Shown piece by piece: positions 33,166 through 64,000 of a stretch of 64,000 nt of DNA; the stretch's first letter is position 1, and the number at the start of each line of letters is the position of its first letter. A model generated the notes under the pieces. The model worked only from the letters and a program-made list of their open reading frames with translations. It was not told the DNA's origin and did no database searches. Both the position numbers and the translations under genes were made by a program. Source of the DNA: Candidatus Spongiisociaceae bacterium (GTDB lineage: Bacteria > Actinomycetota > Acidimicrobiia > Spongiisociales > Spongiisociaceae); NCBI GenBank assembly GCA_965202665.1, contig OZ241841.1, forward strand, positions 2,400,001 through 2,464,000, given 5' to 3'.

Positions 33166-33168
33166 CCG

Positions 33169-37263: not shown

Positions 37264-37357
37264 GCTCCGAACTTTACCCAAAGGGTGTGACGGAAAACCG
37301 GGTCCCCCGGAGTGCGGGAGTGCGGGCGGCGCTTTCATCCGGCAACGGCCGCCGGTC

Positions 37358-37366
37358 TGCTACAAT
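37358..37366 (+). promoter_or_regulatory. Extended -10 (TGcTACAAT) for tRNA-Glu
   Basis: TACAAT at 37361-37366, 10 nt before the tRNA. Confidence 0.6.
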
Positions 37367-37376
37367 CGGCGGGCAC

Positions 37377-37449
37377 GGCCCCGTCGTCTAGTGGCCTAGG
37401 ACGCCGCCCTCTCAAGGCGGTAACGCCAGTTCGAATCTGGTCGGGGCTG
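37377..37449 (+). tRNA. tRNA-Glu(CTC)
   Basis: Acceptor GGCCCCG/CGGGGCT; anticodon arm CCGCC-CTCTCAA-GGCGG; T-arm GCCAG-TTCGAAT-CTGGT. Confidence 0.95.
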
Positions 37450-37499
37450 CCGGGGCCGGGGGCGGTCCGTTAACTCCGCCGGGCGGTTATTATCCGTCT

Positions 37500-39496: not shown

Positions 39497-39498
39497 TG

Positions 39499-44890: not shown

Positions 44891-45011
44891 AGGTTGCAAA
44901 CAGTACACCTGAAAGCCTGCTCTCGTAGCCAATTTGACAGATTTCTTTAAATATCGTAGAATATGGGAATAATCTACTCAACCAAGTAGTTATACTCTAC
45001 ACAAATAAAAA

Positions 45012-45033
45012 TGTCACACCCCCCTCCTAAGGT
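45012..45033 (+). promoter_or_regulatory. RecA-NDp/PafBC-like DNA-damage promoter (TGTCAC-N10-TAAGGT)
   Basis: Spacing matches the actinobacterial TGTCGG-N10-TAnnnT motif; ATG at 45041 is 7 nt downstream. Confidence 0.6.
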
Positions 45034-45040
45034 AAACACC

Positions 45041-46681: not shown

Positions 46682-46950
46682 CGGGACGGCCATGTCGCTC
46701 ATTACAAACCCGGAACATACCCGGAACAGATTTGACGGGTGATCCCTCCGCCATTGGCCCCATGCTCGGCGTGGATGACCCCGACCCTTCCGCTCTCAGC
46801 GCGGAGCGCGGAACGCAACGGGCCGCGCCGCGTTCCCGGTTCGGTCCGCCCGATGGGGTAAATCAACCCCAAGAGGCCGCGGAGCAACCGGAATACGGGG
46901 GGGGGGGGGATAATTCCCGGTGGCCCCGCTGACCGGGCGAGCCAAACCCG

Positions 46951-47077
46951 GAACGCGAAAAATATCTCTAACGACCCCCTTGAATTTTCAACAAAAAACT
47001 CGTATGTTATGGGCGGGAGGGCGGGGGGCGGGTGGGCCCCCCGAATTTTAAAAATTTTTGAGAACGCGAAAAGTTTT
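46951..47077 (+). repeat. Intergenic direct repeat, copy 1 (core only)
   Basis: gaacgcgaaaaatatctctaac...ttgaattttcaacaaaaaactcgtatgttatgggcgggagggcggggggcgggtggg...gagaacgcgaaa. Confidence 0.9.
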
Positions 47078-47169
47078 CTTATTCGGCGGGGCGTGCATCA
47101 CCAAAATTTGGGCAAGGGAGGTGCGGTTCGGGCGCTGGCCGCCTCCTCATTCTACGCGGGAAAATCCAA

Positions 47170-48142
47170 CTGAAGGCCTCCTGGTGTTATGGGGAGTGAA
47201 TGAACCCTATAGCACGGGAGGAGGTCTTCGGGATGCATGGTAACGCGAGGTCATCGCCTTTGGGACGTTTGGGGATGGTGTTGCGGGTGCTAGAAGAAGG
47301 AGAGCCGGTGGCGCGGGTGGCTCGGCGGGGTGGGCATGTCTCGGCAGTGCGTGTCCAAGTGGGTGCGTCGCTACCGGGAGGAAGGCCGAGCCGGTTTGGA
47401 GGACCGGTCGTCGCGGCCGCGTTGTTCCCCCATGCGCACCAGCCCGGCGGTGGAAGAACAGGTGTTGCGGGCGGGGCCGGGCCGGTTGTCGGTGTTTACG
47501 GGGTGCCGGAGCGGACGATCAGCCGTATCCTGCGCCGTCATGGGATGTTGCGTCTGTGGGAATGCGACCTGTTGATCGGCGAGCCACTCAAACCCCCTCC
47601 CAGGCCGGTGGTGCGGCATGAACGGGGCAGGCCGGGGGAGTTGTTCCATACCTCCCGGCGGGGGATGGAGGATACATGGCCGGGGAAACGCTCCGGGGGG
47701 ATGGACCTTTGTGCACTCTGTCGTGGACGACTGCACCCGCCTCGCCTACTCCGAACCGTTGCCGTACGAGGAAGGAACCACCGTCGCCGCGTTCACCGAC
47801 CGCGCCTTGCACACCTTCCGCCAACTGGGCATCACCGACATCACCGACATCACCGACATTGTGGAGATCATGACCGACAACCATTGGAGATACACCCGCA
47901 GCCGCCTATTCGCCGTCCTGCTCGCTCAGCACGACATCCGTCATATCACGATCAAAACCCTATATACCCAGCAGAACGGCAAAGTGAACGATACAGCCAA
48001 ACCCTCAAACCAAAATGGGTCAACTCCCAACCCTGGCCGGATAACCAAACCCGAAACCAAGCCCTCAACCACTGGCTCCACTACAGCATCGGAGGCAAAA
48101 CCACCAATCTCCAGACCGTAACCAACCTACCGGCCATGTACA
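47170..48142 (+). mobile_element. Degenerate IS481-family element (frameshifted transposase from ATG 47233)
   Basis: Leader hairpin gaaggcctcc...ggaggtcttc; MHGNARSSPLGR; SRQCVSKWVRRYREEGRAGLEDRSSRP; VHSVVDDCTRLAYSE; IMTDN; QQNGKV; right end ...VTNLPAMY ending in ACA at 48142. Motifs fall in several frames. Confidence 0.85.
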
Positions 48143-48243
48143 TCTAATCCGCGCCCGGGCCAGCCTGTAGACCCAAACGCCCCAGCGGGCACCGCCGAGC
48201 CCACGGCGCCAGCCTGTTCTCAAACATCCGCCTGCTTTGTCAG

Positions 48244-48454
48244 AACAACCGGCTCCTTCTCCGTTCCGCCGGCTTGCTCCCAGCGGGCGCTCTCCCCCCG
48301 GACGATCCGGGACTTCGTTCCCGATGTTGTTTCCAAAAACCTAGAACGCGAAAAAAATCTCTAACGCCCCCCTTGAATTTCCAACAAAAACCCCGTATGT
48401 TATGGGCGGGAGGGCGGGGGGCGGGTGGGTACCCCAAAAATTTTAAATTTTTTT
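48244..48454 (+). repeat. Intergenic direct repeat, copy 2 (3' end cut by the ISL3 terminus)
   Basis: About 210 bp, near-identical to 49414-49625; lacks the final gagaacgcgaaa. Confidence 0.92.
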
Positions 48455-49410
48455 GGCTCCTCGGGTTTTTTTGGTGGGGGCGGGGGTTTAGTTGGTGTTG
48501 TGGGTTAGGTTAGTAAGATGCCTCGGTGGGCGTAGTTTTGGGGGTTGGAGGGGCTGTGGGCGGTGCGTTTGAGTTTTTGGAGGAGTTGTTGGCGGCTTCT
48601 ATGGGTCCGTTGATTCGTCGTCCGATGGTGTGTAGGAGTTAGGCGAGGATTTCGTTGGACCAGCGGAGGATGGCGGTAACGGGTTTTGCGGTATTGGGGA
48701 ATTAGGCCCGTTTGGCAGAGGTCGGTGAACCGGTCCAGGGCCCCGGTAGGAGATTTCCAAGTTGGGGGCCTGGAAGATTTGGTGTAGTTGTAGGGCTTGC
48801 CAGCCGGTTTCCAGAGCCGTTCCCGTTCGGAGGGGGTGAGACGGTCTTGGCGGGAGCGGTGCAGGCTGGGTTCCCAGGCCGAGGGACGGCCCTGGGATCG
48901 CGGCGGAGTTGGATCAGCGACGTTCCGAACCAGCGGATGACGTGGAAGCGGTCCGGCACGTGTTGCGCCCGGGGCAGGTACTGGTCGATGGCGGTCTTGT
49001 AAGGGGCGGCCCCTTCGGTTGCTACTACCTCCACGCCCCTTCTCCAGGCGGGGCCTTGATCCCGGAAGAACCTGGCCAACCGGGGAGCATACCCAACGTC
49101 TGGTTGGCCTCCCCGTCCGCTACCACCGTCACATACTTGTGGCCCCGGCGGAGGGAAGTCTCATCCACCAGCAACACTCGACACGCCCGTCCCCGCCACC
49201 GGGCCCCCTCCCGCTCCGCCGTCGCTTTTACCAAACCCATGATGACGCTCCAACTCACCCCCGCCCTGTCGGCTTCCCCTCAAACTCGGCATGCCCCTCC
49301 ACATGCGCGCCACCGCACCCCCCGCACTCAAACTGCCGCCGCCCCCAAATCAGCACCGTCTCCCGCTCCCGGGTCGGGAGATCCCGCACCCGCCGGCAAC
49401 CCCCTCTCCA
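48455..49410 (-). mobile_element. Degenerate ISL3-family element
   Basis: VRDLP...VLIWGRRQFECGGCG; VDETSLRRGHKYVTVVAD; VEVVATE.A.PYK.AI...LP.A.HV.DRFHVI. The right terminus GGCTCCTCG (encoding the terminal EEP) is at 48455 beside an AT-rich target. Multiple frameshifts; left end not found. Confidence 0.85.
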
Positions 49411-49413
49411 GTT

Positions 49414-49640
49414 AACAACCGGCTCCTGCTCCGTTCCGCCGGCTTGCTCCCAGCGGGCGCCTTCCCCCCGGACGATCCGGGGCTTCGTTCCCGATGTTGT
49501 TTCCAAAAAACCGAGAACGCGAAAAATATCTCTAACGCCCCCCTTGAATTTTCAACAAAAAACCCGTATGTTATGGGCGGGAGGGCGGGGGGCGGGTGGG
49601 TACCCCCGAATTTTGAAAATTTTTTGAGAACGCGAAATTT
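49414..49640 (+). repeat. Intergenic direct repeat, copy 3 (most complete)
   Basis: 5' GC-rich segment bounded by aacaac/gttgtt, then the core bounded by direct GAGAACGCGAAA motifs. Confidence 0.92.
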
Positions 49641-49654
49641 CCCCCCCGGTTCAG

Positions 49655-50128
49655 TCAGCCGATCCACCATTGGAGGAGCCAGGCGGCCGCCAACCCCCAC
49701 AGTCCGGCCACTGCGTCGTCGGCGGCTATGCCCCATCCTCCCGGCAGCCGTTCCGCGGCCGCCACTAGCGGGAAACGTTTGGTGATGTCGGCTGCCCGGA
49801 ACACTACGAAACCGCCCAGGGCCGGAACTAATCCCACCCCGATCACGGCGATGAACGCCCCGGCCGCTTCGTCGATCACCACCCACCCCGGGTCGTTCTC
49901 CCCGGCTTGGGCGGCCGCCGCCCCGCCCGCCCAGGCCGACAGTCCGGTCACCGCCGCCGCCGCCGCCGCCTGCGCCTCCCATCCCCACCATCCCAGCAAC
50001 AGGGCCGGCCCCAAGGCGAACAGCGCCCCCACCGTCCCCGACCCGGCGTCCGACCCCCGTATGCGGCGCAAGATCAGGCCGGTTCCGAACCAGGAGGCGA
50101 GGGCGGTGACGGCGGTTTTTCTGTTCAT
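49655..50128 (-). CDS. pgpA: Phosphatidylglycerophosphatase A
   Basis: LASWFGTG, SGTVG, DPGWVVIDEAAG, FRAADITK, GGWGIAADDAVAG; RBS ggagg before MNRK. Confidence 0.88.
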   Translation of the reverse strand: MNRKTAVTALASWFGTGLILRRIRGSDAGSGTVGALFALGPALLLGWWGWEAQAAAAAAVTGLSAWAGGAAAAQAGENDPGWVVIDEAAGAFIAVIGVGLVPALGGFVVFRAADITKRFPLVAAAERLPGGWGIAADDAVAGLWGLAAAWLLQWWIG

Positions 50129-50253
50129 TCCTCCCCGGCGGCGCCGCGGGTTAATCGGCCTTGGCAACGAGGGTAGCGGAGCGCGGCGGGCCTTTCCCGC
50201 TCCGGCGGGCCGTTTTGGCCGCGTACGTCTTTTACCGGTTATATTATGGGGCT

Positions 50254-51165
50254 ATGGAGACCTCGAAATACATTTGGATGGACGGCCGCCGGGTGCCTTG
50301 GGAGGAGGCCAACGTCCATGTGCTGACCCACGCCCTGCATTACGGGACGGGCGTCTTCGAAGGCATCAGGGCTTATGAGACGGAAGGCGGGACGGCCGTT
50401 TTCCGCTTGCGCGACCATATGTTGCGCCTGCATCGTTCCTGCCAGGCCTACCGGATAGACCCCCCCTATACGGTGGAGGAACTGGTGGAAGCCGCCAAAT
50501 CCCTGGTGGCGGCCAACGAGTTGGAAGCCGGATACATCCGCCCCATTATTTTCCTGGGTTTGGGGGCGCTGGGGTTGGATCCCCGCAACGCCGAAGTGCG
50601 GGCGGCCATCGTCACTTGGCGGTGGGGGGCCTATCTGGGCGAGGAGGGCGTCCGCAACGGCATCCGGGTGAAAGTGTCCTCCTGGCGGCGCTTCTCCCAT
50701 GACGCCTTCCCCAACGCCAAAGCCACCGGCACCTACATCAACTCCATTTTGGCCAAGCACGACGCCCTCACCGACGGCTACGACGAGGCGCTGATGCTCG
50801 CTTCGGACGGGGCCATCTCCGAAGGTTCGGGGGAAAACCTGTTCCTGGTCAGCAAAGGGACCGTTTACACCCCGCCCCTGTCGGCCGGTTGCCTGGACGG
50901 GGTGACTCGGGACACGGTCATCACCTTGCTGGCCGACGACGGCTATAAAGTGGTGGAGAAGGTGATTCACCGGGCCGACCTTTACTACTGCGATGAACTG
51001 TTCATGACCGGAACAGCCGCCGAAGTAACCCCCATCCGGGAGGTGGACAACCGGCGGGTCGGCTCCGGTTCCCCCGGCCCGGTCACCCGCCGCGCCCAGC
51101 AACTCTACGCGGAGGCCTACGGGGGGAAACTGGACCGCTACGCCGGTTGGCTGGACTACGTCTGA
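50254..51165 (+). CDS. ilvE: Branched-chain amino acid aminotransferase
   Basis: IWMDG, HALHYGTGVFEGIRAY, AKATGTYINS, EGSGENLF, LDGVTRD, GTAAEVTP; TATTAT (50242-50247) is 6 nt before the ATG. Confidence 0.95.
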   Translation: METSKYIWMDGRRVPWEEANVHVLTHALHYGTGVFEGIRAYETEGGTAVFRLRDHMLRLHRSCQAYRIDPPYTVEELVEAAKSLVAANELEAGYIRPIIFLGLGALGLDPRNAEVRAAIVTWRWGAYLGEEGVRNGIRVKVSSWRRFSHDAFPNAKATGTYINSILAKHDALTDGYDEALMLASDGAISEGSGENLFLVSKGTVYTPPLSAGCLDGVTRDTVITLLADDGYKVVEKVIHRADLYYCDELFMTGTAAEVTPIREVDNRRVGSGSPGPVTRRAQQLYAEAYGGKLDRYAGWLDYV

Positions 51166-51183
51166 GAGGCGGGAGCGGAATCA

Positions 51184-51696
51184 GTGGGCCGCCGCCCCTA
51201 CATTGAACTGGGAACCTCCGACCCGCCGGCGGAGGAGTTGGAGCGTTCCGCCGAGCGGCGCTGGCGCCCCACCCGCCCCGGCGAAATCCTGTCGCCCGCC
51301 GACGTTCCGGCGGGGGCCTCCTTCGGCCGCCCCGGCCCGGACGCCGGTTGGAGCCTGCGCCTCATCCGCCGCGCCGAATACGACCGGGGGAGCCGCCCCG
51401 GCCGGTTGGAAAGTTTGCTGACCTCTTTGGCGGCGGCGCGGGCGGCGGCGGCGGGCCGGGGTCCGGTTCCCCAAGATGTGGAGACGGCCCTGTCGCTGGT
51501 CGGGTTGCGCCCCGACGGTTTAGGGGAGGAGGCCCTGCAACGGCTGGCCGCCCGCCGGGAAGAATGGCTGGACGCCGTCGCCCATGAGCCTACGGCGGGG
51601 ATGGCGGCCCTGGCGGACATACCGGCCGACCTGCTGGCCGACGCCCCGGAGCGGGCGCGGGCCCGCTTGGCCGCCGACCCCGGCCTGGTCGGCTGA
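51184..51696 (+). CDS. Hypothetical protein
   Basis: Fills the gap between ilvE and the FAH gene on the same strand with typical high-GC codon usage; no family recognised. Confidence 0.6.
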
Positions 51697-51733
51697 CCCG
51701 CCGGACGCGGGATCATCGGCGGGCGGTCGGCCT

Positions 51734-52513
51734 ATGAAAGTGGTGCGCATCCAAACCGAAGAGGGCATCCGCTACGGGGTGGTGGAAGAGGAGGGCATCC
51801 GGGTGTACGACGGCTCGCCGCTGGTGATGTGGGAGCCGACCGAAGCGCTGGTGGAATTTTCCGCCGCCCGCCTGCTGGCCCCGGTGTTTCCCACCAAAGT
51901 GGTGTGCGTGGGACGCAACTACGGGGAGCACGCCCGGGAAATGGATTCGGATGTTCCGGAGTCGCCCCTGATTTTCCTGAAACCGTCCACGGCGGTGATC
52001 GGCCCGGAGAAGCCGATCGTCCTGCCGTCCGTCTCGCAGGAGGTGCATCACGAGGCGGAAATGGCGGTGATCATCGGACAGGTGGCCCGCAACGTGGCCG
52101 CCGAAGACGCATACCGGGCGGTGCTGGGCTACACGGCCGCCAACGATGTGACCGCCCGCGACCTGCAACGCCGGGACGGGCAGTGGACGCGGGGCAAAGG
52201 CTTCGACACGTTCTGCCCGCTGGGGCCGGCCATCGAAACCGAATTCGACCCGTTGGAGGATCATTCGCTGGAATGCCGGGTGAACGGGGAGGTGCGGCAG
52301 GCGGGTTCGGTGCGGGACATGATTTTCGGGGTGGCTCGGCTGATCGAATTCATTTCCGGGGTGATGACGCTCCTGCCCGGGGACGTTATCTTGACCGGCA
52401 CCCCGTCCGGGGTGGGCCGGTTGCGGGCGGGCGACCGGGTGGAAGTGTCGCTGGAAGGGGTGGGCGCCCTGTCCAACCCGGTGGCGGACGCCCCGGCCGG
52501 GGGGCCGGAATGA
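51734..52513 (+). CDS. Fumarylacetoacetate hydrolase family protein
   Basis: [58 protein letters not shown]; its position just before gltX is typical of actinobacteria. Confidence 0.93.
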
Positions 52514-52547
52514 CGGCCGGCGGGCGCGGTTTGCGGCGCGGACGACG

Positions 52548-54026
52548 GTGACTCCCCGCCTCCGAATCGCCCCTTCCCCCACCGGGTTTCTGCATGTGGG
52601 CAACGTGCGGGCGGCCCTGTTCAACTGGTTGCACGCCCGCCGCACCGGCGGGGTTTTCATCGTCCGCATCGACGACACCGACCGGGCCCGTTCGGAGGAA
52701 AAATATGTTTCCGACATCGTGTCCGGGTTGCGCTGGCTGGGTTTGGACTGGGACGAAGGGGCGGAAGCGGGGGGGCCGCACGGCTCATACCGCCAGTCGG
52801 ACCGGTTCGACCGCTACCGGGAGGCGGCGGAAGGCCTGGTTTCCGCGGGGCGGGCCTATCGCGATTTCCGCCCGGCGGGAAAGCTGGACGAATTGCGGTC
52901 CCGAGCGCAGGCGGAGCGCAAACCCCCCGGTCATTACATCCGCCGCCCGGATGACTCCGATGCGGAACGGGATCGGGCCCGGGCGGAGGCGGGGGAGGAG
53001 GCGACCATCCGGTTTTTGGTTCCCCCCGGGGAGGCGGTGGCTTTCACCGACCGGGTGCGGGGGGAGGTGCGGTTCGAGGCGGAGGCGGTGGACGACTTCG
53101 TGATCCTGCGCTCCGACGGGTCGCCCACCTATCATCTGGCTTCCGTAGCGGACGATGTGGACTACCGGATCACCGACGTGGCCCGGGGGGAAGATCTGCT
53201 GTCCTCCACCCCCAAGCACATTCTGCTGACCCGGGCTTTGGGGGCGGAGCCGCCCCGCTACGCCCATCTGCCTTTGCTGTTGGGGCCGGACGGGCGCAAA
53301 CTTTCCAAACGGCACGGGGACACCGCCCTGCGGTTTTACCGGGAGGCCGGTTTTCTGCCGGACGCGGTGTTCAACTACATGAGCCTGCTGGGATGGTCGT
53401 TGCATCCGGAAAACGAAGTGTTTTCCCGGGCGGAGGCGACGGCCGCGTTTGATTTGGACGATGTGCAGAAAAGCCCCGCCGTCTTCGATACTGAAAAACT
53501 GGAATGGATGAACGGGTTGTACATCCGGGCTCTGCCGGCGGCGGAATTCGCGGAGTCGGCTTTGGCGGCGGCGGCCGGCGGACTGGGGCGGGAGTTGCCG
53601 GAGGCGGAGCGGGAGAGGTTGCGGGCGATCGCCCCCCTGGTGCAGGAACGGGTGCGGCTGCTGTCGGAGGTGACCCCCATGGTGCGGTTCCTGCTGGAAG
53701 AGGTGGAATACGATGAGGCGGCCTGGGCGAAGGTCATGAAAGAAGAGGCCCGCCCGGTTCTGGAGGCGGCGGCGATCGCGTTGCAGGCGGTGGAGCCGTG
53801 GGGCAAAGAGGGGATAGAGGAGGCCCTGCGGGGGATGCTGGACGTACTGGGGGTGAAGCCCCGCAAAGGACTGCAGCCGATCCGGGTGGCGGTAACCGGC
53901 TCCAACGTTTCCCCGCCGCTTTTCGAAAGCCTGGCCGCCCTCCCGCAGGCGGAGGCGCTGGCCCGCATCAAATCGGCCGCCTCCCGCCTGGGGGAGACCG
54001 CGGTACCAGCGAATGGGCTAGACTAA
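52548..54026 (+). CDS. gltX: Glutamate--tRNA ligase
   Basis: RIAPSPTGFLHVGN (HIGH), RIDDTD, LRWLGLDWDEG, RGEDLL, KLSKRHG (KMSKS), IRVAVTG...SPPLF. Confidence 0.96.
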   Translation: MTPRLRIAPSPTGFLHVGNVRAALFNWLHARRTGGVFIVRIDDTDRARSEEKYVSDIVSGLRWLGLDWDEGAEAGGPHGSYRQSDRFDRYREAAEGLVSAGRAYRDFRPAGKLDELRSRAQAERKPPGHYIRRPDDSDAERDRARAEAGEEATIRFLVPPGEAVAFTDRVRGEVRFEAEAVDDFVILRSDGSPTYHLASVADDVDYRITDVARGEDLLSSTPKHILLTRALGAEPPRYAHLPLLLGPDGRKLSKRHGDTALRFYREAGFLPDAVFNYMSLLGWSLHPENEVFSRAEATAAFDLDDVQKSPAVFDTEKLEWMNGLYIRALPAAEFAESALAAAAGGLGRELPEAERERLRAIAPLVQERVRLLSEVTPMVRFLLEEVEYDEAAWAKVMKEEARPVLEAAAIALQAVEPWGKEGIEEALRGMLDVLGVKPRKGLQPIRVAVTGSNVSPPLFESLAALPQAEALARIKSAASRLGETAVPANGLD

Positions 54027-54040
54027 GGACTTCCCCGGTG

Positions 54041-54116
54041 GGCCCCGTCGTCCAGCGGTCTAGGACGCTGGCCTTTCAAGCCAGAAACGCGGGTTCGAAT
54101 CCCGTCGGGGCCACCA
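54041..54116 (+). tRNA. tRNA-Glu(TTC)
   Basis: Acceptor GGCCCCG/CGGGGCC; anticodon arm CTGGC-CTTTCAA-GCCAG; T-arm GCGGG-TTCGAAT-CCCGT; ACCA end encoded. Confidence 0.96.
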
Positions 54117-54238
54117 CTGTCGTAAATGTTGTCGAGATTCGACCGCGAGGAGCGTAAGTGGGCATTTCGGCTTTAGGGGCGCGTGAGGTTGTGGAGTTCT
54201 CATTCAAGCCCGAACAGCGATACAGCCATCCACCTCCA

Positions 54239-54319
54239 GCTTAGGTCCGGTCTGGTGCGCGGCGCTCGAAATGCCGTAGGGGTTTTCGCCCCTCGTGGGT
54301 TCGAATCCCACCCCCTCCG
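54239..54319 (+). pseudogene. 5'-truncated tRNA-Ser(CGA)
   Basis: Anticodon arm CGGCG-CTCGAAA-TGCCG, long variable arm GGGG-TTTTCG-CCCC, T-arm GTGGG-TTCGAAT-CCCAC and 3' acceptor CCCCTCC-G are present; the required 5' GGAGGGG is missing. Confidence 0.75.
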
Positions 54320-54365
54320 CTTTTGTCGGTGGGCGGGTTTGGCGGCGGGGCGGGCGGGCGGCGGT

Positions 54366-54394
54366 TTGACATATTGGGGGGGGGGGGTTAGGGT
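54366..54394 (+). promoter_or_regulatory. Sigma-70-type promoter TTGACA-N17-TAGGGT with a G12 tract in the spacer
   Basis: TTGACA 54366-54371; G12 54376-54387; TAGGGT 54389-54394; about 90 nt upstream of giant gene 2. Confidence 0.75.
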
Positions 54395-54483
54395 TTTGGG
54401 TGCTGGGCTTGTTGTGGGTTCAGTAGCCCGTTGCGGCGGCGGGTTTGGTATTGGTTCGCCGTTGGAGAGTTTGGAGGTTGGTG

Positions 54484-57400
54484 ATGGGGCGGATGTCGGG
54501 GTTGGGTTCGGTGGGTGGGGTGTGGGGGCGTGTGTTGGGGTTGGGTTTGGCGGTGGTGTTGGTGGTGGGGTTGTTGCCGTTGGTTCCGGTGGGGGTGGAG
54601 GGGCAGACGCGGACTATTTCGTTTAGGATTACGGATCGGAATAATAATCCGGTTTCGGCTGTTACTGAGAATGCTGGGGATTTGCGGTTGCGGCTTCATA
54701 TGGATATTTCGCCTGCGGCGCATAAGGGCGGTTCTGTGTATTTTAATACGGGTGGTAGCGCTACTCGTCATACGGATTATGGGTTTGGTTATGCTGACCA
54801 ATGTTGTATATCTGCTGGTAATTGGTATAGTCATGTCCAAGATAATTCGTGGCTTTCTTGGGGTACTGGGGATACTCATAAATCAGTTGATTTTACGTTG
54901 AGGATGGTGGATGATAGGTTGTTTGAGTATTATGAGTCGTTTAAGATTGTGAGGGGTACTGCTACTGATGGTTTTACGTATGCGAATTCTGAGGTGGGGT
55001 TGTCTGTGATTGATCAGGATCGTAGGTTGGGGGTGTCGTATTCTGTTAGTGAGGTGGGGGAGAGTGCGGCGGGGCAGTGGCGGTCGGGTACGGTGACGTT
55101 GAGTAGGGGGGATGTTTCGAGTGGGGTGTTTGTGCCTGCTACGGCGAATTGGACTACTTATGGTGTTAATCCTTTGCAGGTGAAGGTGGTGGATGGTTCT
55201 GCGAAGAATGAGGTGGCGGGGGTGACGGATGAGAGGCGTGATTTTGTGTTTTCGCATTTTAATGATGTGGTGGTTGCGAATCGGCGGATTGTTAGTGTTG
55301 CTAAGGGGCAGGTGTCGGGTACGGTTGGTGATGTCGGGTTTCGGGTTTTGTCGGAGGTGGGGGAGCGGGTGGCGGAGCCGCCGGAGGTGTTTTATGTGAC
55401 GGTGGATACTTCTCCGGTGTGGGGGGCGCCGGTGACGATTGTGGATGATGATGTGACTATTGCGTTGTCGTCGTCGTCGTCTAATAGTTCTTTTGCGGGG
55501 TTCGCGGAGAGTGATATTCCGCAGCCGGTGACGGTGACGGCCCGGTTTTTGCATGCGGCTCGTTCGGTGATTCCTACGGATACGGTGGTGAATGTGAGTG
55601 TGAAGTCGTTTTCGGATAGTCCTGTGTTGACGGGTGGGGGGGCGGTGGTGTCGTCGGGGGCGTGTCCGCAGACGAGTGGGGATGTGTGTTTGGATGTGGG
55701 GAATTCGTTTACGGTGACGATCCCGGCGGGGCAGGTGAGTGGGTCGAGGACGGTTTTGATGACGGCGCGGGATGAGGGCGGTACGGCGGAGGGGGTGGAG
55801 GGGGTGGGGTTGGATGGGTCGGCGTCGGTGGGGGGGGAGGCGGTGTTTGTGTATGGTCATGCTATCCGGGTGTATGATGCGGCTGACGCGAAGGTGATTG
55901 GGTTGTCGTTGCATGAGGCGGCGACGGGGGAGGCGGGGTTGTCGTCGGTGGGGGAGGGGGTTGGGAAGGCGGTGCGGGTGCGGGCTACTATGGCTGGGTC
56001 GTGGCAGTCGGTGTGGGAGTCGCGGTATTCGAGGGTGGTGTGGGTGACGCCGGGTTCGGTGAGCGGTTCGGCTACGTTGGGGTCGTGTTCGGGTTCGGGT
56101 CAGAGCCGGGTGTGCACGGGGGATTTCGGGCGGAGCGCGGGGGAGGTGTCGGTTCGTATGGGGTCGGATGATTCAGCGACGGTGGGGGATGTGACGATCA
56201 CTACGTATGATGATACGGTGACGGAGGATGGGGAGTCGGTGGTGTTTTGGGGTCGCTCCAATTCGCAGTGGGTGGTCGCTCCGGCGATGTTGACTATTAA
56301 TGATGGGGATCGGTATGTGGATTTGAGCGTGTCGCCGTCGACGGTAGCGGAGCCTGCGTCGGGCAATACCCGTAATGATATGCGGTTGACGGCCCGGTTT
56401 GGGCAGATGGTTGGTAATGTGTTTGTTCCGTCGACGTCCAGCACTCATAGCAGTAGTTTTACTTCGCGGTTGTATTTTCGGGACCAGTCGGCGACGCAGG
56501 AGGACGATCAAGGCAATGTAGATGATTTTTATCAGATTGGCTTTTCTTTTAGGGATATTTCCATCGCGGCTGGTTCGGTGTCGGGGTCGGTGACGTGGCC
56601 TTTCAACTTTTATGCTGATAATAAGGCGGAGGGTACGGAGGATTTCCGTTTTGAGTGGGGGAACAGCCAGGTAGCGGGTTATAGTTTGTCGCCGAATCCC
56701 AACGTGTATATCACAGATCCGGATTCGGCGCTTAATCTGTCGATAGACGCTGATGGGGGAACAACTGGGGTGCAGCCGTTGCGGGAGGGGGAGTCGTTGT
56801 CGGGGGCGGTGGGGGTGGCGGCGTTTTCGGCGGGTTCGTCTACGATCGGGTCGGCGACTTCGGTTGTTTTGTCTGCGGGGTTGGGTGCGCCGGGGGCGGG
56901 GGTGGCGTCGGCGGTTGATTTCACGTATGCGCCCGCTTCCCCGAACACGGTTTCGGTGGCGGCTAATAGTGTGTCGGGGTCGGCGGCGTTGGGGGGGTTG
57001 GCGGTGGTGGATGATGGTGTGGTGGAGGGTCCGGAGACGTTTGTTTTGTCGGGGGTGGTTACGGGGGTGGCGGGGGTGTCGGCGGCGGATAGTTCGGTGA
57101 CGATTGTGGATGATGATGCGGATATTGATTTGACGGTGTCGGAGTCGTCGGTGCTGGAAGGAGCCGGGGAGCAGGCGATCACGGTGAGGGCGGCTTTTAG
57201 GGGGAGCAGTTCCGTTTTGACGGCGGCGACTGATGTGACGGTGACGTTGGCGAGCGCGGCGTCGGGTGGGGCGGTGTTGTCGTCGGCGGTGTGTCCGCAG
57301 ACCAGTGGAGACGTGTGTTCCGACAAGACCAATAATCAGTTCACGGTGTCCATCCCGGCGGGCGCCACCAGCGGGTCGGCGACGTTGCGGCTGACCGCCC

Positions 57401-60400
57401 GGGACGACGGCAACGCGGAGGGGGGAGAGGGGCTGGTGTTGTCGGGGACGGCGTCGGTGGGGGGCGCGGCGGTGGCGGTGGCGTCCGCGGAGATTAGCGT
57501 GTTTGATCCGGGGCAGGCGATTGATTTGTCTTTGACCGACACCGCGCAAACTCCTGTGGCGTTGACGGCGGTGGGGGAGGACGGGGGGGCGCGGGTGGTG
57601 CGGGTGACGGCTACTGCTCCGGCGGCGGTGTCGGCGGAGACGGTGGTGTCGGTGACGGTGGGCGCGGCGGGGGGTTCGGCTGATCCGCAGTCGTGCGCGG
57701 GGTCGGGGCAGAACGAGGTTTGCACGGGAGGGGATTACGCAAAGTCGGATCCGGCGACGATCACTATTCCGTCGGGAGGGACGAGCGGGTCGGTGGATGT
57801 GACGGTCACCCCGTTGGAGGACACCATATCAGAAGAGAACGAGACGATCCGCGTCGGGGGTTCGGCGGGGGGGTATGCGGTGCGGGGGGCTGATTTGGAA
57901 ATCACCGACCAGGACCGAACGGTGGGGATAGGGGTGGGGGAGGGGGAGGCGTCGTACGGGGAGGGTGGGGATCCGCAGTCGGGCTGGGCCACCCGCAGCC
58001 AGTGTATGACTTCCGCTCCGTTTTCCAGGACGGTGACCGGCCGCCTGGGTGGGTTGTCGGCGGAGGGGGTGTTCACCGCGTCTACCTCCTCGACGTTGGG
58101 TAGTAATGTGCGGGGGCGGGTGCGGACGGTGGATGGAACGGCTACTTATAATCAGGATTATTCGTCGGATGGGTTCGCGGTGGACACCATGCCTACCGCG
58201 TGGGAGTTTATTACCATCGCGGCTGGTTCCACGTCGGGGACGGCGACGGTGCAGTTGGTGAGTTGCGTGGATGACGTGGCGGAGGGGGATGAGACTTATC
58301 AGATGACTATTTCCAGCCTTCCGGCGGGTTTCGGGGCGGATCCTCAGTTGATGACGGTGACCGATGATGACAGCCGTCCTGGGTTGCGGGGGAGCGTGTC
58401 GGAGGACGCGGGCGGAACAGTGGGGGTGGAGGCTTTCCTCCCGGCGGGGTCGTCGGAGTTGACCGACCCGCTGGTGGTGTCTTTGACGTCGGTGATCGCC
58501 GACAGCGCGGGGACGGCTGATTTTTCTTATCCGTCGCCCGCGCCGGTGCTGTTGACTATCCCGGCTGGTTCCACTTCGGTCAGCGGCGCCATCCCGGGGT
58601 TGGCTATCACTGATGATGGGAGCGTGGAGGGGCCGGAGCGGTTGACTTTGGGCGGGACGGACGCGTCGGGGGCTGCGGTGTCGGGTTCGTTGGCTATCGT
58701 CGATGACGACGCGGTGATAGATGTGCTGGTTTCCCCGGCGGAGGTGTTGGAGCAGGCCGCCGCTCAACAGATCGGGGTGACCGCCCGTTTCCGGGGAGAA
58801 ACTTCCGCGTTGACCGCGGCGACGGCGGTGACGGTTACGTTGGCGGGGGCGCAGAACGGGGCTACGTTGGCGGCGGCGTGTCCGGCTACTTCTGAGGATG
58901 CTTGCACCGACCAGGCCAACAACCAGTTCACCATCAGCATCCCCGCCGGGAGCGTTGAGGCGTCTGGGTCGTTTATGCTGACCGCCCGCAGCGACAACGC
59001 GGCGGACAACGACGAAGACCTGACCGTATCCGGCGCGGCCACTATCGGGGGGGAAGCGGCGGTGGTGGAGGGGACGGAGTTGACGATTTACGATCCGGGC
59101 CGGTCCATCGCGTTGAGTTTTACTGACACTGCTTCTACGCCGGTTCCGTTGGTGGATGTGGGGGAGGATGGGGGGGCTAAAGTGATTCGGGTGGTGGCTT
59201 CTGCGCCGGTGGCGCCGACGTCGGCGGTGGTGGTGGATGTGGTGGTGGGGGCGGAGGGTACTACGGCTGGGGCGGGGGATTATTCGTCGAGTTCGGATAG
59301 GGTGTCGGTGACTATCGCCGCCAACGACACCAGCGGGACGGCGGATGTGACTATCACCCCCGCGTCGGATACCATCACCGAAGACTTGGAGATTATCCGG
59401 TTCGCCGGTTCAGCTACTGGGTATGCGGTGGTGGCGAATGATTTGGTGATACAGGATCAGGATCGGGCGGTGAAGGTGATGGCGGCGGAGGGGGATCTGG
59501 TGGTGCGGGAGCCTAGGGAGGGGGAGGCGTTGACTAACCAGTATAATGGCATTCTCAAGTTTTTCCGGGGTATGACGGCTGTTTTGGGCGGGGTGTCGGG
59601 CGGGGTGTTCACCCCCTCTACCTCTTCTACTTACAGTTCTAATTTGGGGATGCGGGTGCGGGTTGATGCGGGGTCGGCCACCGTGGGCGGCCAGACTAGC
59701 ACTACCGACGATATCTTCCATGAGCACGGCGAGGCGGACGACCCGCTGGAGGTGACTATAAACGCGGGGGCCCTTTCCGGTAATGTGAATATAGTGTACG
59801 CTCCCACCGCGGTTCCGGTGGTTGCTGTTTTGAAGGACACGGTGGCGGAACCGGATCAGATCTTTTACTTCCGTCCCGCCGTTCCCTCCGGTTGGACCGC
59901 GGTCAGGGAGACGATCACCATCCAAGACTCCAACCAGATAGCGATAACGGTGGACACTGACAGCGCGACGGGAACCCAGACCACGCTGGCGGAAGGCGCC
60001 ACCGGTTCCGGCGTGACCGTTTCCGCCGCCTACTACAACGCCACCACCTCGGTAATAGCCTCCGCTACCAACGTGACTCTGTCAGCCGCCGCCCCCACCC
60101 CGGCCGGAGCCGGGAAGGCCGTCGCCGCCGACTTCACCTACACCCCGGCCACGCCCAATACCATCACTTTCCCCGCTAACAACGCCACCCCTTCAGCCAC
60201 CGCCACCCTAACCGGGTTGACGGTCACCGACGACGCGATTGTGGAGGGGCCGGAGACGATTACCATTAGCGGTTCTTCCCCGTTAGGCGACGCCACCCCC
60301 GCTACTATAACCATCGTCGACGACGACGACGACATCACGCTGTCAGTGTTCCCCGCCTCAGTAGCGGAAGGCTCGGGTACGCAGACGATAACGGTTACCG

Positions 60401-63400
60401 CCGCTTTCGCGGGAACCACCTCCGCCCTGACCGCCGCCACCGACGTGACGGTGACGGTCGCTTCCGCGTCCAGCAACGGTGCCACCCTGGCCGCCTGCCC
60501 CTCCTCCACCACTGATGTGTGCGTTACCGGTTTGACCAGCAGCCAGCTGACCGTGACCATCCCCGCCGGGGAAACCAGCGGCGCCGCTACTTTCCAGCTC
60601 ACCGCCCGCGACGACACCACCGCCGACGATGATGAGAAACTGACGGTAACCGGCTCCGCCACCGTCGGCGGCGCAACAGCTACGGTCACCGGAACCGAAA
60701 TGTCGATGCGGGATCCGGGGCGGGCGATTACGTTGAGTTTCACTGACACCGCCCAAACCCCCGCCGCGCTAACCGCAGTGGAAGAAGACGGCGGCGCGCA
60801 GACGGTGCGGGTGGTGGCCACCGTCGGGACGGCCCCCACCGCCGACACCGACGTAACAGTCACCGTAGGCGCCACAGGCGGCACCGCCACCTTGGGAACG
60901 CTAGGGGACTATCTACGCAGCGCCGGGGAGGCAACGGTGACCATCGCGGCGAATGACACCAGCGGAACCGCCGACGTAACCATCACCCCCGTGCAGGACA
61001 GGGTCACTGAAGATCACGAAACTATCCGCTTCGCGGGCGCCGCTACGGGGTATGCGGTAGTACCAGCCGATCTACAGATCATCGACCAAGACCGGGTTAT
61101 CAAGTTCACTTTGAACCCGGACACGATTGACGAGTGGGCTTCCCGCCGTAGCTCGGTTGTTTCGGATGGCACCGCTACTTTAGGAGGCACCTCCGGCGGC
61201 GTGTTCACTCCTTCCACGTCCTCTACTTACAGTTCCAATATGAATTTGCAGGCGTGGTCCCCTGAAGGTTCTGGCAATAGCCAAAATACTAGAACTATTG
61301 CTAGATATCACGTATATGACTGGGAAAGTTATTTGTTTTATTTGAGGAAATATTTTAATATTCCGTCTGGTTCACTCACCGCTTCGCAAGACATATCACA
61401 TTCCGTCGAGGTAAACAACACAGCGGATCCGGATGAGGCGATTAAACGGCTGGGAGCGAGGACGCTTCCAGCGGGGTTCACTCAGGAAAGAGCCTGGATT
61501 AAGGTGCGGGACGTGACGGATTCGCGGGTGGTGTTCAGGGTGGACACCGACGGCAACACTATGGGCAACCAGACCGAAATAGCGGAGGGTGCTTCCGGCA
61601 CAGGAGTGGAAGTATGGGCGGGATGGCCCTCCGGAGTCACCGCTACCCGTCACACGACGCCGGTCACGGCCACTCTTACTATCGAAGAAGATACGGAACC
61701 GGAGGCGGGGGAGGCGGGCGACGCCGATTTTGATTACGCTCCGCCGTCGCCGCTGTCGTTTACCATTCCTGTTAAGGTGGCGGAGGATCTTATGGCTACG
61801 CCTCCGGTGGTGGGTGTGTCTGGGTTGAAGAGTTCTTCGGGGACGTTGGCGGGTTTGTCGGTGGTGGATGATTCGATTGTGGAGGGTCCGGAGACGATAG
61901 CGTTTGGCGGTACTTCCAGTCTGGGTGCCGGGCATCCCGTTTCGGGGGAGTTGGTTATCGCCGATGATGATGCTGATATTTCGTTGTCGGTGTTCCCGGC
62001 GGTGGTAGCGGAAGGGTCGGGGGCGCAGACGATTACGGTTACCGCCCGTTTCGCGGGAACTAGCTCGGTGTTGACTGCGGATACTGTTGTGACGGTGACT
62101 GTTGCGGCGGCGTCGTCGGGTGGGGCGGTGGTGTCGTCGGCGGTGTGTCCGCAGACCGGGGATGATGTGTGTACCGACAAAACGAGCAATCAGTTTACGG
62201 TTACTATCCCGGCCGGGCAGTTGCTGGGGAGCGGTTCTTTCCAGTTGACCGCCCGGGAGGACTCCACCGCCGACGACGAAGAAGGCCTGACGATTTCAGG
62301 CTCAGCCGCGGTGGGGGGGGCGGCGGTGGAGGTGACGGGGACGGCGATGACGGTCCGCGACGCGGATAAGGCGATCACGCTCACTTTGACTGATACCGCG
62401 CAAACCCCGGCCGCGTTGACCGAGGTAGAAGAGGATGGCGGTGCGCAGACGGTGCGGATAACGGCTACTGCTTCGGCGGCGGTGGGCGCATCCCCGGTGA
62501 ACGTAACGGTGATGGTGGGCGCGTCGGGCGGCGACGCGCTGTTGAACACTGATTTCACTCGTAGTTCGGCTACGGCGACGATTACTATTCCCGCGCAGGG
62601 CACGAGTGGTTCGGCGGATGTGACCATAACGCCCCTGTCGGATACCATCACTGAGAATCGGGAGATGATATGGTTTACTGGTTCTGTTGCTGGGTATGGG
62701 GTGGTGGCGGCTGGTTTGGGGATTGCGGATCAGGATCGGTTTATTCGGGTGTCTCCTTTGGTTGATCGGTACACGGAGCCCTTACCTGGTGGTTTCAGTT
62801 ATACTACTCATCAGGTGGGTTTTAGAGCTGATTTGGGGGGTGTGTCTGGTGGGGTGTTCACTGCTTCGACGGCTTCTGCTTACAGTGCCGGTTTGAACAA
62901 TTTGCGGGTGACGATGCGGGAGGGGACGGCGTTGGATTATACTGGGCCATGTCCGTTAGTGAGCTGTGATTGGCGTTGGAATGGTAATTTAGGTCAGGTG
63001 TTGGTGTCTATTCCGGCTGGTTCTTTGTCTGCTACGTTGGCTGCTTCGGCTTTTAGCACTTTGCAGGTGTATAGGTATGGCCCGGTGGCGGAGGCGGTGG
63101 AGACGATAGAGGTGGTGGTGGCTGAGCCGGCGGGTTTTACTGTCGTTGCGGGGATTATCAGCATTGTGGACGAATACGATACTCGGGTTGCTTTGCAGGT
63201 GGATACTGATGGGGATACTGATGGTTATCAGACGGTGATAAGGGAGGGCGGCTCTGGTTCGGTGTCGGTGTCGGGGAGTTTCCGGTCGGGAACGGTCAAC
63301 GAGGTAGGTTCGGATGTGGCGGTGGCTTTGTCGACGGCGGTGGAAATCTCGGGGGCGGGGAAGGCGGTTGCGGCTGATTTCTCGTATGCGCCGCCGTCGC

Positions 63401-64000
63401 CGAATTCTTTCACCATCCCGGGCGCAGCCGTTGACCATGACGGCGACGGCGGTGACTCAACTGCGATGCCCCCAGTTCCTGGGACCGACCCCAGGGTTAT
63501 TTCTTATTCGTTGGTTCCGGCCACGCTAACTGGGTTGACAATTGTGGATGATACGATTGTGGAGGGCCCGGAGACGTTTTTGGTGAACGGTACGTCTTCG
63601 TTGGGGGCGGTTACGGCGGCGACGGTGATTATTGGGGATGATGATGTTGATGTGGATTTGTCGGTGTCTCCGTCGTTGGTGGCGGAGGGGGCGGGGGCGC
63701 AGACGATTACGGTTACCGCTCGTTTCAAGGGTTCTAGTACTGTGTTGACGGAGGCGGTGGATGTGACGGTGCAGGTGGCGGGCGCGTCGGGCGGCGCGGC
63801 GTTGGCGACTGCGCCGTGTCCGCAGATGTCGGGGGATGCTTGTACGGATAAGACGGATAATCGGTTTACGGTTACTATTCCGGCGGGGTCGTTGTCGGCT
63901 AACGGAACGTTCCAGTTGACCGCCCGCGACGACAACGTCGCCGAGGGGGCCGAGGCTTTGACCGTGAGCGGTTCGGCTATGGTGGGGGGTTTGGCGGTGC
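54484..64000 (+). CDS. Second giant secreted Calx-beta/Ig-like repeat protein; 3'-partial, not in the ORF track
   Basis: GGAGG RBS then GTG-ATG; signal peptide MGRMSGL...RVLGLGLAVVLVVGLLPLVPVGVEG|QTRTISF. Frame +1 gives Calx-like domains up to the window end (...DDNVAEGAEALTVSGSAMVGGLAV). The track lists no terminated ORF in this frame, which implies >3,170 codons without a stop. Confidence 0.9.
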   Translation, partial: MGRMSGLGSVGGVWGRVLGLGLAVVLVVGLLPLVPVGVEGQTRTISFRITDRNNNPVSAVTENAGDLRLRLHMDISPAAHKGGSVYFNTGGSATRHTDYGFGYADQCCISAGNWYSHVQDNSWLSWGTGDTHKSVDFTLRMVDDRLFEYYESFKIVRGTATDGFTYANSEVGLSVIDQDRRLGVSYSVSEVGESAAGQWRSGTVTLSRGDVSSGVFVPATANWTTYGVNPLQVKVVDGSAKNEVAGVTDERRDFVFSHFNDVVVANRRIVSVAKGQVSGTVGDVGFRVLSEVGERVAEPPEVFYVTVDTSPVWGAPVTIVDDDVTIALSSSSSNSSFAGFAESDIPQPVTVTARFLHAARSVIPTDTVVNVSVKSFSDSPVLTGGGAVVSSGACPQTSGDVCLDVGNSFTVTIPAGQVSGSRTVLMTARDEGGTAEGVEGVGLDGSASVGGEAVFVYGHAIRVYDAADAKVIGLSLHEAATGEAGLSSVGEGVGKAVRVRATMAGSWQSVWESRYSRVVWVTPGSVSGSATLGSCSGSGQSRVCTGDFGRSAGEVSVRMGSDDSATVGDVTITTYDDTVTEDGESVVFWGRSNSQWVVAPAMLTINDGDRYVDLSVSPSTVAEPASGNTRNDMRLTARFGQMVGNVFVPSTSSTHSSSFTSRLYFRDQSATQEDDQGNVDDFYQIGFSFRDISIAAGSVSGSVTWPFNFYADNKAEGTEDFRFEWGNSQVAGYSLSPNPNVYITDPDSALNLSIDADGGTTGVQPLREGESLSGAVGVAAFSAGSSTIGSATSVVLSAGLGAPGAGVASAVDFTYAPASPNTVSVAANSVSGSAALGGLAVVDDGVVEGPETFVLSGVVTGVAGVSAADSSVTIVDDDADIDLTVSESSVLEGAGEQAITVRAAFRGSSSVLTAATDVTVTLASAASGGAVLSSAVCPQTSGDVCSDKTNNQFTVSIPAGATSGSATLRLTARDDGNAEGGEGLVLSGTASVGGAAVAVASAEISVFDPGQAIDLSLTDTAQTPVALTAVGEDGGARVVRVTATAPAAVSAETVVSVTVGAAGGSADPQSCAGSGQNEVCTGGDYAKSDPATITIPSGGTSGSVDVTVTPLEDTISEENETIRVGGSAGGYAVRGADLEITDQDRTVGIGVGEGEASYGEGGDPQSGWATRSQCMTSAPFSRTVTGRLGGLSAEGVFTASTSSTLGSNVRGRVRTVDGTATYNQDYSSDGFAVDTMPTAWEFITIAAGSTSGTATVQLVSCVDDVAEGDETYQMTISSLPAGFGADPQLMTVTDDDSRPGLRGSVSEDAGGTVGVEAFLPAGSSELTDPLVVSLTSVIADSAGTADFSYPSPAPVLLTIPAGSTSVSGAIPGLAITDDGSVEGPERLTLGGTDASGAAVSGSLAIVDDDAVIDVLVSPAEVLEQAAAQQIGVTARFRGETSALTAATAVTVTLAGAQNGATLAAACPATSEDACTDQANNQFTISIPAGSVEASGSFMLTARSDNAADNDEDLTVSGAATIGGEAAVVEGTELTIYDPGRSIALSFTDTASTPVPLVDVGEDGGAKVIRVVASAPVAPTSAVVVDVVVGAEGTTAGAGDYSSSSDRVSVTIAANDTSGTADVTITPASDTITEDLEIIRFAGSATGYAVVANDLVIQDQDRAVKVMAAEGDLVVREPREGEALTNQYNGILKFFRGMTAVLGGVSGGVFTPSTSSTYSSNLGMRVRVDAGSATVGGQTSTTDDIFHEHGEADDPLEVTINAGALSGNVNIVYAPTAVPVVAVLKDTVAEPDQIFYFRPAVPSGWTAVRETITIQDSNQIAITVDTDSATGTQTTLAEGATGSGVTVSAAYYNATTSVIASATNVTLSAAAPTPAGAGKAVAADFTYTPATPNTITFPANNATPSATATLTGLTVTDDAIVEGPETITISGSSPLGDATPATITIVDDDDDITLSVFPASVAEGSGTQTITVTAAFAGTTSALTAATDVTVTVASASSNGATLAACPSSTTDVCVTGLTSSQLTVTIPAGETSGAATFQLTARDDTTADDDEKLTVTGSATVGGATATVTGTEMSMRDPGRAITLSFTDTAQTPAALTAVEEDGGAQTVRVVATVGTAPTADTDVTVTVGATGGTATLGTLGDYLRSAGEATVTIAANDTSGTADVTITPVQDRVTEDHETIRFAGAATGYAVVPADLQIIDQDRVIKFTLNPDTIDEWASRRSSVVSDGTATLGGTSGGVFTPSTSSTYSSNMNLQAWSPEGSGNSQNTRTIARYHVYDWESYLFYLRKYFNIPSGSLTASQDISHSVEVNNTADPDEAIKRLGARTLPAGFTQERAWIKVRDVTDSRVVFRVDTDGNTMGNQTEIAEGASGTGVEVWAGWPSGVTATRHTTPVTATLTIEEDTEPEAGEAGDADFDYAPPSPLSFTIPVKVAEDLMATPPVVGVSGLKSSSGTLAGLSVVDDSIVEGPETIAFGGTSSLGAGHPVSGELVIADDDADISLSVFPAVVAEGSGAQTITVTARFAGTSSVLTADTVVTVTVAAASSGGAVVSSAVCPQTGDDVCTDKTSNQFTVTIPAGQLLGSGSFQLTAREDSTADDEEGLTISGSAAVGGAAVEVTGTAMTVRDADKAITLTLTDTAQTPAALTEVEEDGGAQTVRITATASAAVGASPVNVTVMVGASGGDALLNTDFTRSSATATITIPAQGTSGSADVTITPLSDTITENREMIWFTGSVAGYGVVAAGLGIADQDRFIRVSPLVDRYTEPLPGGFSYTTHQVGFRADLGGVSGGVFTASTASAYSAGLNNLRVTMREGTALDYTGPCPLVSCDWRWNGNLGQVLVSIPAGSLSATLAASAFSTLQVYRYGPVAEAVETIEVVVAEPAGFTVVAGIISIVDEYDTRVALQVDTDGDTDGYQTVIREGGSGSVSVSGSFRSGTVNEVGSDVAVALSTAVEISGAGKAVAADFSYAPPSPNSFTIPGAAVDHDGDGGDSTAMPPVPGTDPRVISYSLVPATLTGLTIVDDTIVEGPETFLVNGTSSLGAVTAATVIIGDDDVDVDLSVSPSLVAEGAGAQTITVTARFKGSSTVLTEAVDVTVQVAGASGGAALATAPCPQMSGDACTDKTDNRFTVTIPAGSLSANGTFQLTARDDNVAEGAEALTVSGSAMVGGLAV

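Follow-up and report, generated by a model that had tools for sequence, protein, structure and literature searches.

The Locus and Its Skewed Repeats

The window analysed here is a stretch of 64,000 nucleotides from a Candidatus Spongiisociaceae bacterium (genome G000; coordinates G000:C1:2400001-2464000), part of a single contig of 2.77 Mb with 64% G+C, and it holds giant genes of surface proteins, remnants of insertion sequences and several single-copy genes. Some of its repeated elements, above all giant gene 2 and an IS481 remnant, change along one strand from G/T-rich to C/A-rich, a skew expressed below as K = (G+T-A-C)/N, in which G and T are the K bases and A and C the M bases. These two elements belong to a known kind, GRINS (PMC8256042). 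Furthermore, the comparison of duplicated genes within this genome and among its relatives indicates that the skew very probably depends on gene conversion; that it arises from conversion between copies filtered by the mismatch repair protein NucS is the explanation that we favour, with distinctly less assurance.

Giant gene 2 lies in a duplicated block (54245..64000, plus strand) that encodes Calx-beta-like modules and reaches its S-layer-homology end past the window. Its open reading frame starts at 54445 and counts 4492 codons from stop to stop, ending at window-equivalent position 67905. At four-fold degenerate sites, the first G/T zone of the gene (54445..59844, plus strand) has K values of +0.58 to +0.98, with +0.88 to +0.98 in the first 600 codons (54445-56245) and about +0.6 from there up to 59845; one bin near the start holds a single C and no A among 81 four-fold sites. 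An internal C/A zone, corresponding to module 3 (59845..61250, plus strand), follows with four-fold K of -0.18 to -0.25 over 59845-61195, and then a second G/T zone (61550..64000, plus strand; +0.45 to +0.82 over 61645-63895), which turns C/A-rich again past the window and reaches -0.5 to -0.75 near the end of the gene. The skew that a preliminary description of this DNA had noticed by eye is real, far exceeds chance and persists at four-fold and synonymous sites (+0.98 to -0.75 in giant gene 2); the G/T-rich start and the flip to C/A that it had assigned to the gene are both present, in two G/T-to-C/A cycles rather than one.

The modules of the gene are recoded with respect to each other. Synonymous differences between module 1 (56790-58100) and module 3 (59960-61250) divide 108:10 between K and M bases (p 6e-22), and their classes are G/C (53:4, the largest), T/C (31:5) and G/A (22:1); module 3 compared with its sister modules gives K/M counts of 108:10, 91:16 and 109:12, and the recoded zone is found in all three paralogues of the gene. 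The two peptides that had been presented as one and the same are alike at 11 of 13 residues. The genome carries two full-length paralogues with 86-94% identity (93.8% over 13,487 bp and 86.6% over 9,073 bp), and the three genes, each of about 4,500 codons, are mosaics in which tracts of 100% identity are common to alternating pairs, the mark of gene conversion. The homology of the duplicated gene has its left end at a 3' fragment of tRNA-Ser(CGA) (54245..54320, plus strand; not called by ARAGORN), and an intact tRNA-Ser(CGA) gene sits immediately upstream of one giant paralogue, which shows that copying took the giant gene as a single block. Between the fragment and the gene lies a sigma-70-like promoter with a run of 12 G in its spacer (54366..54394, plus strand), one of 23 such promoters of surface-protein paralogues in G000; these carry runs of 11-13 G between the -35 and -10 boxes, with spacers of 15-17 bases (17 in 4 of the 23), and phase variation of an S-layer-type antigen repertoire is their likely role.

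GRINS are defined by duplicated stretches above 500 bp in length and 80% in identity and by mean absolute GC and TA skews both above 0.15 (150-nt windows, step 30); duplication was scored here with blastn, against bowtie2 windows in the original study (PMC8256042). The two skews are further expected to correlate positively, most strongly at third codon positions, and the copies to bear signs of conversion. Giant gene 2 exceeds the thresholds (GC/TA skew 0.27/0.24), its skews correlate at r 0.76 and peak at third positions, and its paralogues alternate in their tracts of full identity. The same holds for the duplication and skews of the IS481 remnant (47168..48146, plus strand), which is 80-82% identical to full-length copies and matches over 1,060 bp at 82% (GC/TA skew 0.26/0.19, r 0.84); its K falls by quarters as +0.26, +0.13, -0.11 and -0.39, confirming the G/T-left, C/A-right profile first described. 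We regard these stretches as GRINS-type repeats with near certainty. The skew threshold by itself is loose, since 124 of 1969 random unique segments pass it.

The ISL3 remnant (48457..49430, minus strand) has the same polarity (K by quarters +0.55, +0.21, -0.03 and -0.34) and passes the skew thresholds, with a best match of 484 bp at 79.8% that stays below the duplication threshold; both family labels, IS481 and ISL3, were confirmed as partial matches. The left-to-right pattern claimed for ISL3 is there, but its minus-strand orientation is no independent test of strand, because a G/T-left, C/A-right profile is invariant under reverse complement. For the same reason the rule is best put per strand: each strand is G/T-rich in its 5' part and C/A-rich in its 3' part. 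The DUF222-HNH gene and giant gene 1, to which C/A-rich ends had been ascribed, proved to be only weakly skewed. The former (45011..46315, plus strand), from a family of eight members, has four-fold K by fifths of +0.31, +0.47, -0.24, -0.07 and -0.33 and a GC skew of 0.12-0.14, under the GRINS threshold, as are the GC/TA skews of giant gene 1 (0.13/0.14). The single-copy genes ilvE (aminotransferase class IV; 50278..51165, plus strand) and gltX (glutamyl-tRNA synthetase; 52548..54026, plus strand) lack such extremes, as had been noted, with K of -0.09 to +0.14 by quarters at all positions and one gltX quarter of up to +0.52 at four-fold sites. Sharp C/A-to-G/T jumps coincide with the ends of insertion sequences and the starts of gene families.

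An assembly artefact was considered and rejected: contigs from 4 runs in 4 studies span 49700-63900 in every one of its 30 bins, and they include segments of giant gene 2 at 90-100% identity (one run may be the source sample). Some of the sequencing runs that contain this stretch are labelled sponge or marine metagenome.

Skew and Repetition in the Genome

Throughout G000 the skew is tied to repeated elements, as the preliminary description had supposed. In bins of 500 bp, |K| exceeds 0.25 in 17.7% of 761 repeat bins versus 0.9% of 4119 unique bins; K is higher on the left than on the right in 73 of 87 high-copy blocks, and the flanks of repeats are neutral, with no leakage of skew. The GRINS definition covers 51 of 94 duplicated regions, 44 of the 51 with G/T-5', C/A-3' polarity. 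Genes were predicted with a purpose-made gene caller (2082 genes), and four-fold K by fifths runs +0.075, +0.084, +0.094, +0.096 and +0.026 in 1217 single-copy genes, against +0.54, +0.29, +0.11, +0.09 and -0.25 in 60 genes with at least three copies. Moreover, 43 of 44 S-layer-homology paralogues from G000, G001, G004 and G009, representing part of each family, start above +0.2 and end below zero.

Fork direction may also contribute, on mixed evidence. GC skew and the position of dnaA place the origin of G000 at about 1.35 Mb. The mean K of nine subfamilies (again part of each family) correlates with the fraction of members on the leading strand (rho 0.73, p 0.027), and G014 fits the fork-direction test; the effect is modest, with one clear miss, G002. 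When the DUF222 genes of 10 further genomes from the phylum were compared, 7 showed a weak slope of the same sign, a comparison made without single-copy controls and not used as proof. The rhsA core of Escherichia coli, a single gene, has no such gradient.

Duplicated recA and tuf

The skew extends to duplicated genes that are not mobile. recA is present twice in G000 (132501-133547 and 1276072-1277112; 95.7% identical) and once in the four relatives searched, and only in G000 is it skewed (+0.39 versus -0.08 to +0.14). At four-fold sites, C>G changes number 20/41 versus 88/1050 in a baseline of 26 single-copy orthologue trios, and G>C changes 0/29 versus 88/1001. This polarisation goes beyond the signature of single-strand deamination, which comprises only C>T and A>G; since C/G transversions are the largest polarised class, here and among the modules of giant gene 2, deamination alone, as first suggested, does not fit.

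The twin tuf genes of G000 (1041185-1042375 and 2035689-2036879) are identical and are the two most skewed genes of the genome, with values of 0.92 versus 0.51 for the next and a GC/TA skew of 0.60/0.23 in GRINS windows. All 29 leucine codons are TTG and all 34 glutamate codons GAG, C-ending codons return only in the last 25 or so, and the onset of skew coincides with the start of homology. On the G000 branch, changes away from G/T are nil: G>C 0/121 (baseline 88/1001), two-fold T>C 0/47 (12/36) and two-fold G>A 0/41 (128/502), each zero count having a p of about 1e-5 to 5e-5 versus baseline, with G>T at its baseline level (1/121 versus 22/1001). The protein is also altered, as EF-Tu departs from the consensus of unskewed orthologues by Ile>Val at 7, Lys>Arg at 3 and Glu>Gly at 3 positions, and first-position K is 0.31 versus 0.06. 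The gene caller displaced the start of tuf, and genes skewed in this way may be mis-annotated. Because duplicated, non-mobile tuf, recA and ribosomal RNA (rRNA) spacers carry the skew, the mobility footprint that had been proposed for it is not upheld. The pattern had also been named already (PMC8256042).

Copy Number and nucS Across Genomes

The protein NucS of G000 scores 333.7 bits with NF002876 (cut-off 252), and MutS_I (PF01624) was not found in this genome; together with the DUF222-HNH genes, these features point to an actinobacterial host. The K of tuf was scored in two sets that share G025: the 26 relatives, counting G000, that have a full gene, and 40 genomes picked, before K was known, on contiguity and nucS status from the 113 of the phylum that had a match. 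Partial genes (G024, G037, G032), an unpublished genome (G039) and the unlike third copy of G025 were excluded, and weak partial PF01939 matches were counted as nucS not found; every scored row comes from a published genome. A K of at least 0.3 was reached in 27 of the 29 genomes with two or more tuf copies and nucS, and in none of 11 with two copies where nucS was not found. Among single-copy genomes it was reached in 2 of 17 with nucS and in 0 of 9 where nucS was not found. The contrast between single and double copies persists inside families f1, f14 and f22. G031, from the same order as G000, has two tuf copies, 99.4% identical, with K of only 0.07-0.10 and G/T richness limited to about 50 codons at the start. 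In G029 nucS sits between two neighbours at the trmL locus; G031 has this locus in one contiguous piece, and nucS is missing from between those neighbours. G031 also has S-layer-homology matches.

In the rRNA operons, leaders have K of +0.37 to +0.45 in three of four multi-operon genomes with nucS and -0.06 to +0.07 in six single-operon ones; leaders and spacers are G/T-rich in the two-operon nucS genomes G128, G088 and G104, and the rRNA of G080, with three operons and nucS not found, is not G/T-rich. The archaeal 16S loci have a leader K of -0.08 to +0.18 in 27 scored and a spacer K of at most +0.16 and thus offer no strong case, and no multi-operon genome with NucS but without MutS was identified among them. 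Family f25, with nucS in 6 of 11 genomes, has no full-length tuf pair and thus offers no contrast. Three further cases concern single genes. The third tuf of G025 (L091, G025:C1) has a K of -0.48 against +0.71 for the identical pair, and it may be a non-converting paralogue or a binning error; G010 (L114) and G017 (L115) each have one tuf, with K of 0.85 and 0.94, in fragmented assemblies where a second copy has likely collapsed.

A Proposed Gene Conversion Filtered by NucS

Published studies indicate that NucS repairs only G-T, G-G and T-T mismatches, acting on incoming oligonucleotides with patches of 8-12 bases (PMC11551767, PMC11551744, PMC6159515), that diverged copies recombine 3- to 10-fold more often once nucS is lost (PMC5290159), and that tuf conversion in Salmonella starts anywhere and is limited by the ends of the gene (PMC5485169). 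On this basis the following course may be proposed. A new strand templated on one paralogue would pair with the resident strand of another; NucS would then take out, singly, each new base wherever both facing bases are G or T, letting A.C, C.C and A.A pass, and in this way only A or C alleles could be transmitted through the new strand. Tracts would begin anywhere, proceed 5' to 3' and end where homology ends, a course that entails a gain of C/A at the 3' end of each strand, where the other strand reads G/T. An excess of events on the lagging strand would finally tip the leading strand to G/T. The skew would then be a by-product of recombination rather than a function. In a toy simulation, equal use of the strands yields a course from +0.54 to -0.37, resembling the insertion sequences, and 95% of lagging-strand events one from +0.77 falling to +0.19, resembling tuf; copies in mixed orientation give a symmetric profile, and removal of the filter a flat one. 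In its broadest form, which we consider only a little better than an even bet, GRINS would be the footprint of a second biased gene conversion that acts wherever NucS is the sole mismatch repair, driving any sequence of at least two copies to G/T at 5' and C/A at 3', overriding codon selection in tuf, altering EF-Tu residues and decaying upon loss of nucS.

Several observations weigh against conversion filtered by NucS. The rates of the simulation were chosen by us, so that it can speak only for the sufficiency of the model. GRINS have been reported in cyanobacteria, firmicutes and eukaryotes (PMC8256042), and the phyla concerned are mostly without NucS; a preprint reads the conversion spectra of Mycobacterium tuberculosis as reduced action of NucS in recombination (PMC13061034). 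The phylogenetic distribution is also restrictive: in a quick EF-G tree, 19 rows that all belong to nucS genomes make up a clade (SH-aLRT 96), outside which every genome lacking nucS falls, and the nucS genomes form one clade save for family f25 and one doubtful row. The counts given above therefore overstate independence, and the contrast amounts to about one phylogenetic event plus G031, a single genome whose assembly is 85% complete. Genomes with nucS include exceptions that show no skew or a weak one: the tuf pairs of G104 (-0.19) and G138 (+0.12), the six rRNA operons of G090 (K of -0.09/+0.16), and three haloarchaea with 2-3 operons, which have MutS in addition to NucS. In G002 both tuf copies are on the leading strand according to the position of dnaA, yet their profile is N-shaped. 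Finally, the scheme does not account for the internal C/A zone of giant gene 2 (59845-61250), which does not lie at an end of present homology; a relic of the fusion of two units, or a favoured start of tracts, would be a guess.

The remaining difficulties bear on an alternative that we judge unlikely, namely a mutation bias within repeats, in which repair synthesis during recombination or single-stranded intermediates would make C>T, C>G and A>G changes more frequent on one of the strands, by an error-prone polymerase, tautomers or deamination with bypass of abasic sites, and conversion would spread the result, possibly still filtered by NucS. The authors of the GRINS study suggested error-prone replication of tautomers (PMC8256042), and C/G singletons among paralogues are symmetric (17:18 and 22:21), as a mutation bias predicts. 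In recA, changes to G/T are 3-6 times the baseline, and C>G is 5.8 times, above what two copies give without population recombination; differences between the two recA copies, each confined to one of them, lean to G/T likewise. An acceleration beyond the twofold clonal limit means either that allelic recombination makes the drive population-wide, as we would suppose, or that mutation itself is biased. On the other hand, a mutation bias accounts poorly for the absence of changes away from G/T in tuf with G>T at baseline, for the neutral flanks and for the C/G class being the largest, given that deamination and tautomers yield transitions. Rare variants among paralogues are mostly of the disfavoured allele (K>M 86 versus M>K 32 in 5' zones), and transition singletons also oppose their zone (in 5' zones G>A outnumbers A>G by 51 to 1, and in 3' zones C>T outnumbers T>C by 27 to 7), counts that are fed in addition by general A+T pressure.

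That conversion owes its bias to the physical properties of strand exchange or to a different protein of this clade, and not to NucS, appears improbable. A.C and C.C mispairs have lower stability than G.T and G.G, so the same base classes are predicted; nucS is confounded with the clade, and GRINS in phyla without NucS (PMC8256042) would be covered. The 11 two-copy tuf genomes without nucS are nonetheless unskewed; nine of them were searched and gave no MutS_I match, G031 being assumed to be alike, so that in these ten there would be no MutS to mask a physical bias, and G031 retains only its 50 or so G/T-rich codons. Still more improbable, to the point of being almost dismissible, are selection or transcription, whether through RNA folding, lower identity of repeats or promoter-proximal damage, and a single-stranded route of movement. 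The genes for EF-Tu, rRNA and S-layer proteins are expected to be highly transcribed, gene sense mostly matches fork direction, and the giant gene was duplicated in one block, as its tRNA fragment shows. Single-copy groEL, dnaK, rpoB and fusA are however without skew, as is single-copy tuf in 15 of the 17 genomes with nucS; the contrasts within f1, f14 and f22 contradict these explanations, the tRNA set of G000 is ordinary, and non-mobile duplicates are skewed as well. Of the two selective causes proposed at the outset, 5'-3' RNA pairing is not supported, since the longest reverse-complement arm found measures no more than 53 bp and tuf, of which about 93% is G/T-rich, lacks a C/A-rich stretch to pair with; selection for lower identity between repeats is at odds with the most skewed genes being 100% identical twins.

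Relation to Known Systems

The elements described in PMC8256042 resemble those of G000 in their duplicated regions, their intense and correlated GC and TA skews with a peak at third positions and both signs on one strand, their shifts of amino acids, their link to gene conversion and their transposase and endonuclease hosts. Instead of the polyketide synthases of that work, the hosts in G000 include surface proteins of the S-layer type, tuf, recA and rRNA spacers. The mechanism was called unknown there, lagging-strand deamination being unable to give both signs on one strand, and the skew was proposed to promote conversion (PMC8256042); our data suggest the reverse. The main text of that study does not use the words NucS, mismatch, tuf or rRNA and does not give the sign rule of a G/T-rich 5' part on each strand, on which its supplement may bear. 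The present window contributes this per-strand rule of polarity, which answers in principle why both signs of skew share one strand, together with the evidence from transversions and a natural loss of nucS (G031).

The conversion between tufA and tufB of Salmonella (PMC5485169) is similar in involving two copies of tuf, in being bounded by the gene ends and in having its transfer shaped by mismatch repair. Salmonella differs in being a MutS organism, and tufA of E. coli has no keto skew (K -0.01). Within the portions available of the NucS/EndoMS literature (PMC11551767, PMC11551744, PMC5290159, PMC6159515, PMC6159521, PMC11109965), the substrates G/T, G/G and T/T coincide exactly with the set of keto-keto pairs, and the short patches and the action on incoming oligonucleotides and on recombination of diverged copies fit the filter proposed here; those portions deal with replication errors and recombination rates, and the present work with the composition of repeats. 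In GC-biased gene conversion, a repair bias in heteroduplexes fixes alleles without selection; here the bias is instead between keto and amino bases, is polarised by strand and leaves G+C content largely unaltered. If conversion filtered by NucS is true, many actinobacteria have duplicated genes, among them tuf and the rRNA spacers that serve as markers, whose composition mirrors a repair bias and not selection or history. Skew could then flag past or collapsed duplications and, in families of polyketide synthases and surface antigens, the parts where conversion is active.

Other Features of the Window

A non-coding repeat of about 130-210 bp occurs at 46944-47071, 48244-48455 and 49414-49626, with 88-94% identity and more copies elsewhere; it contains a sigma-70-like pair of boxes and adjoins the remnants of insertion sequences. 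An island of lower GC (29858-44604) carries an AAA_21/AbiEii-type ATPase, a DUF4011 helicase-nuclease and a type III restriction-modification pair. The left part of the window (1-28400) is taken up by an open frame of 12,734 codons, which begins 9.6 kb before it and encodes leucine-rich repeats, Calx-beta and S-layer homology ends; comparable frames of 10,000-11,500 codons are found in G001, G009 and G013.

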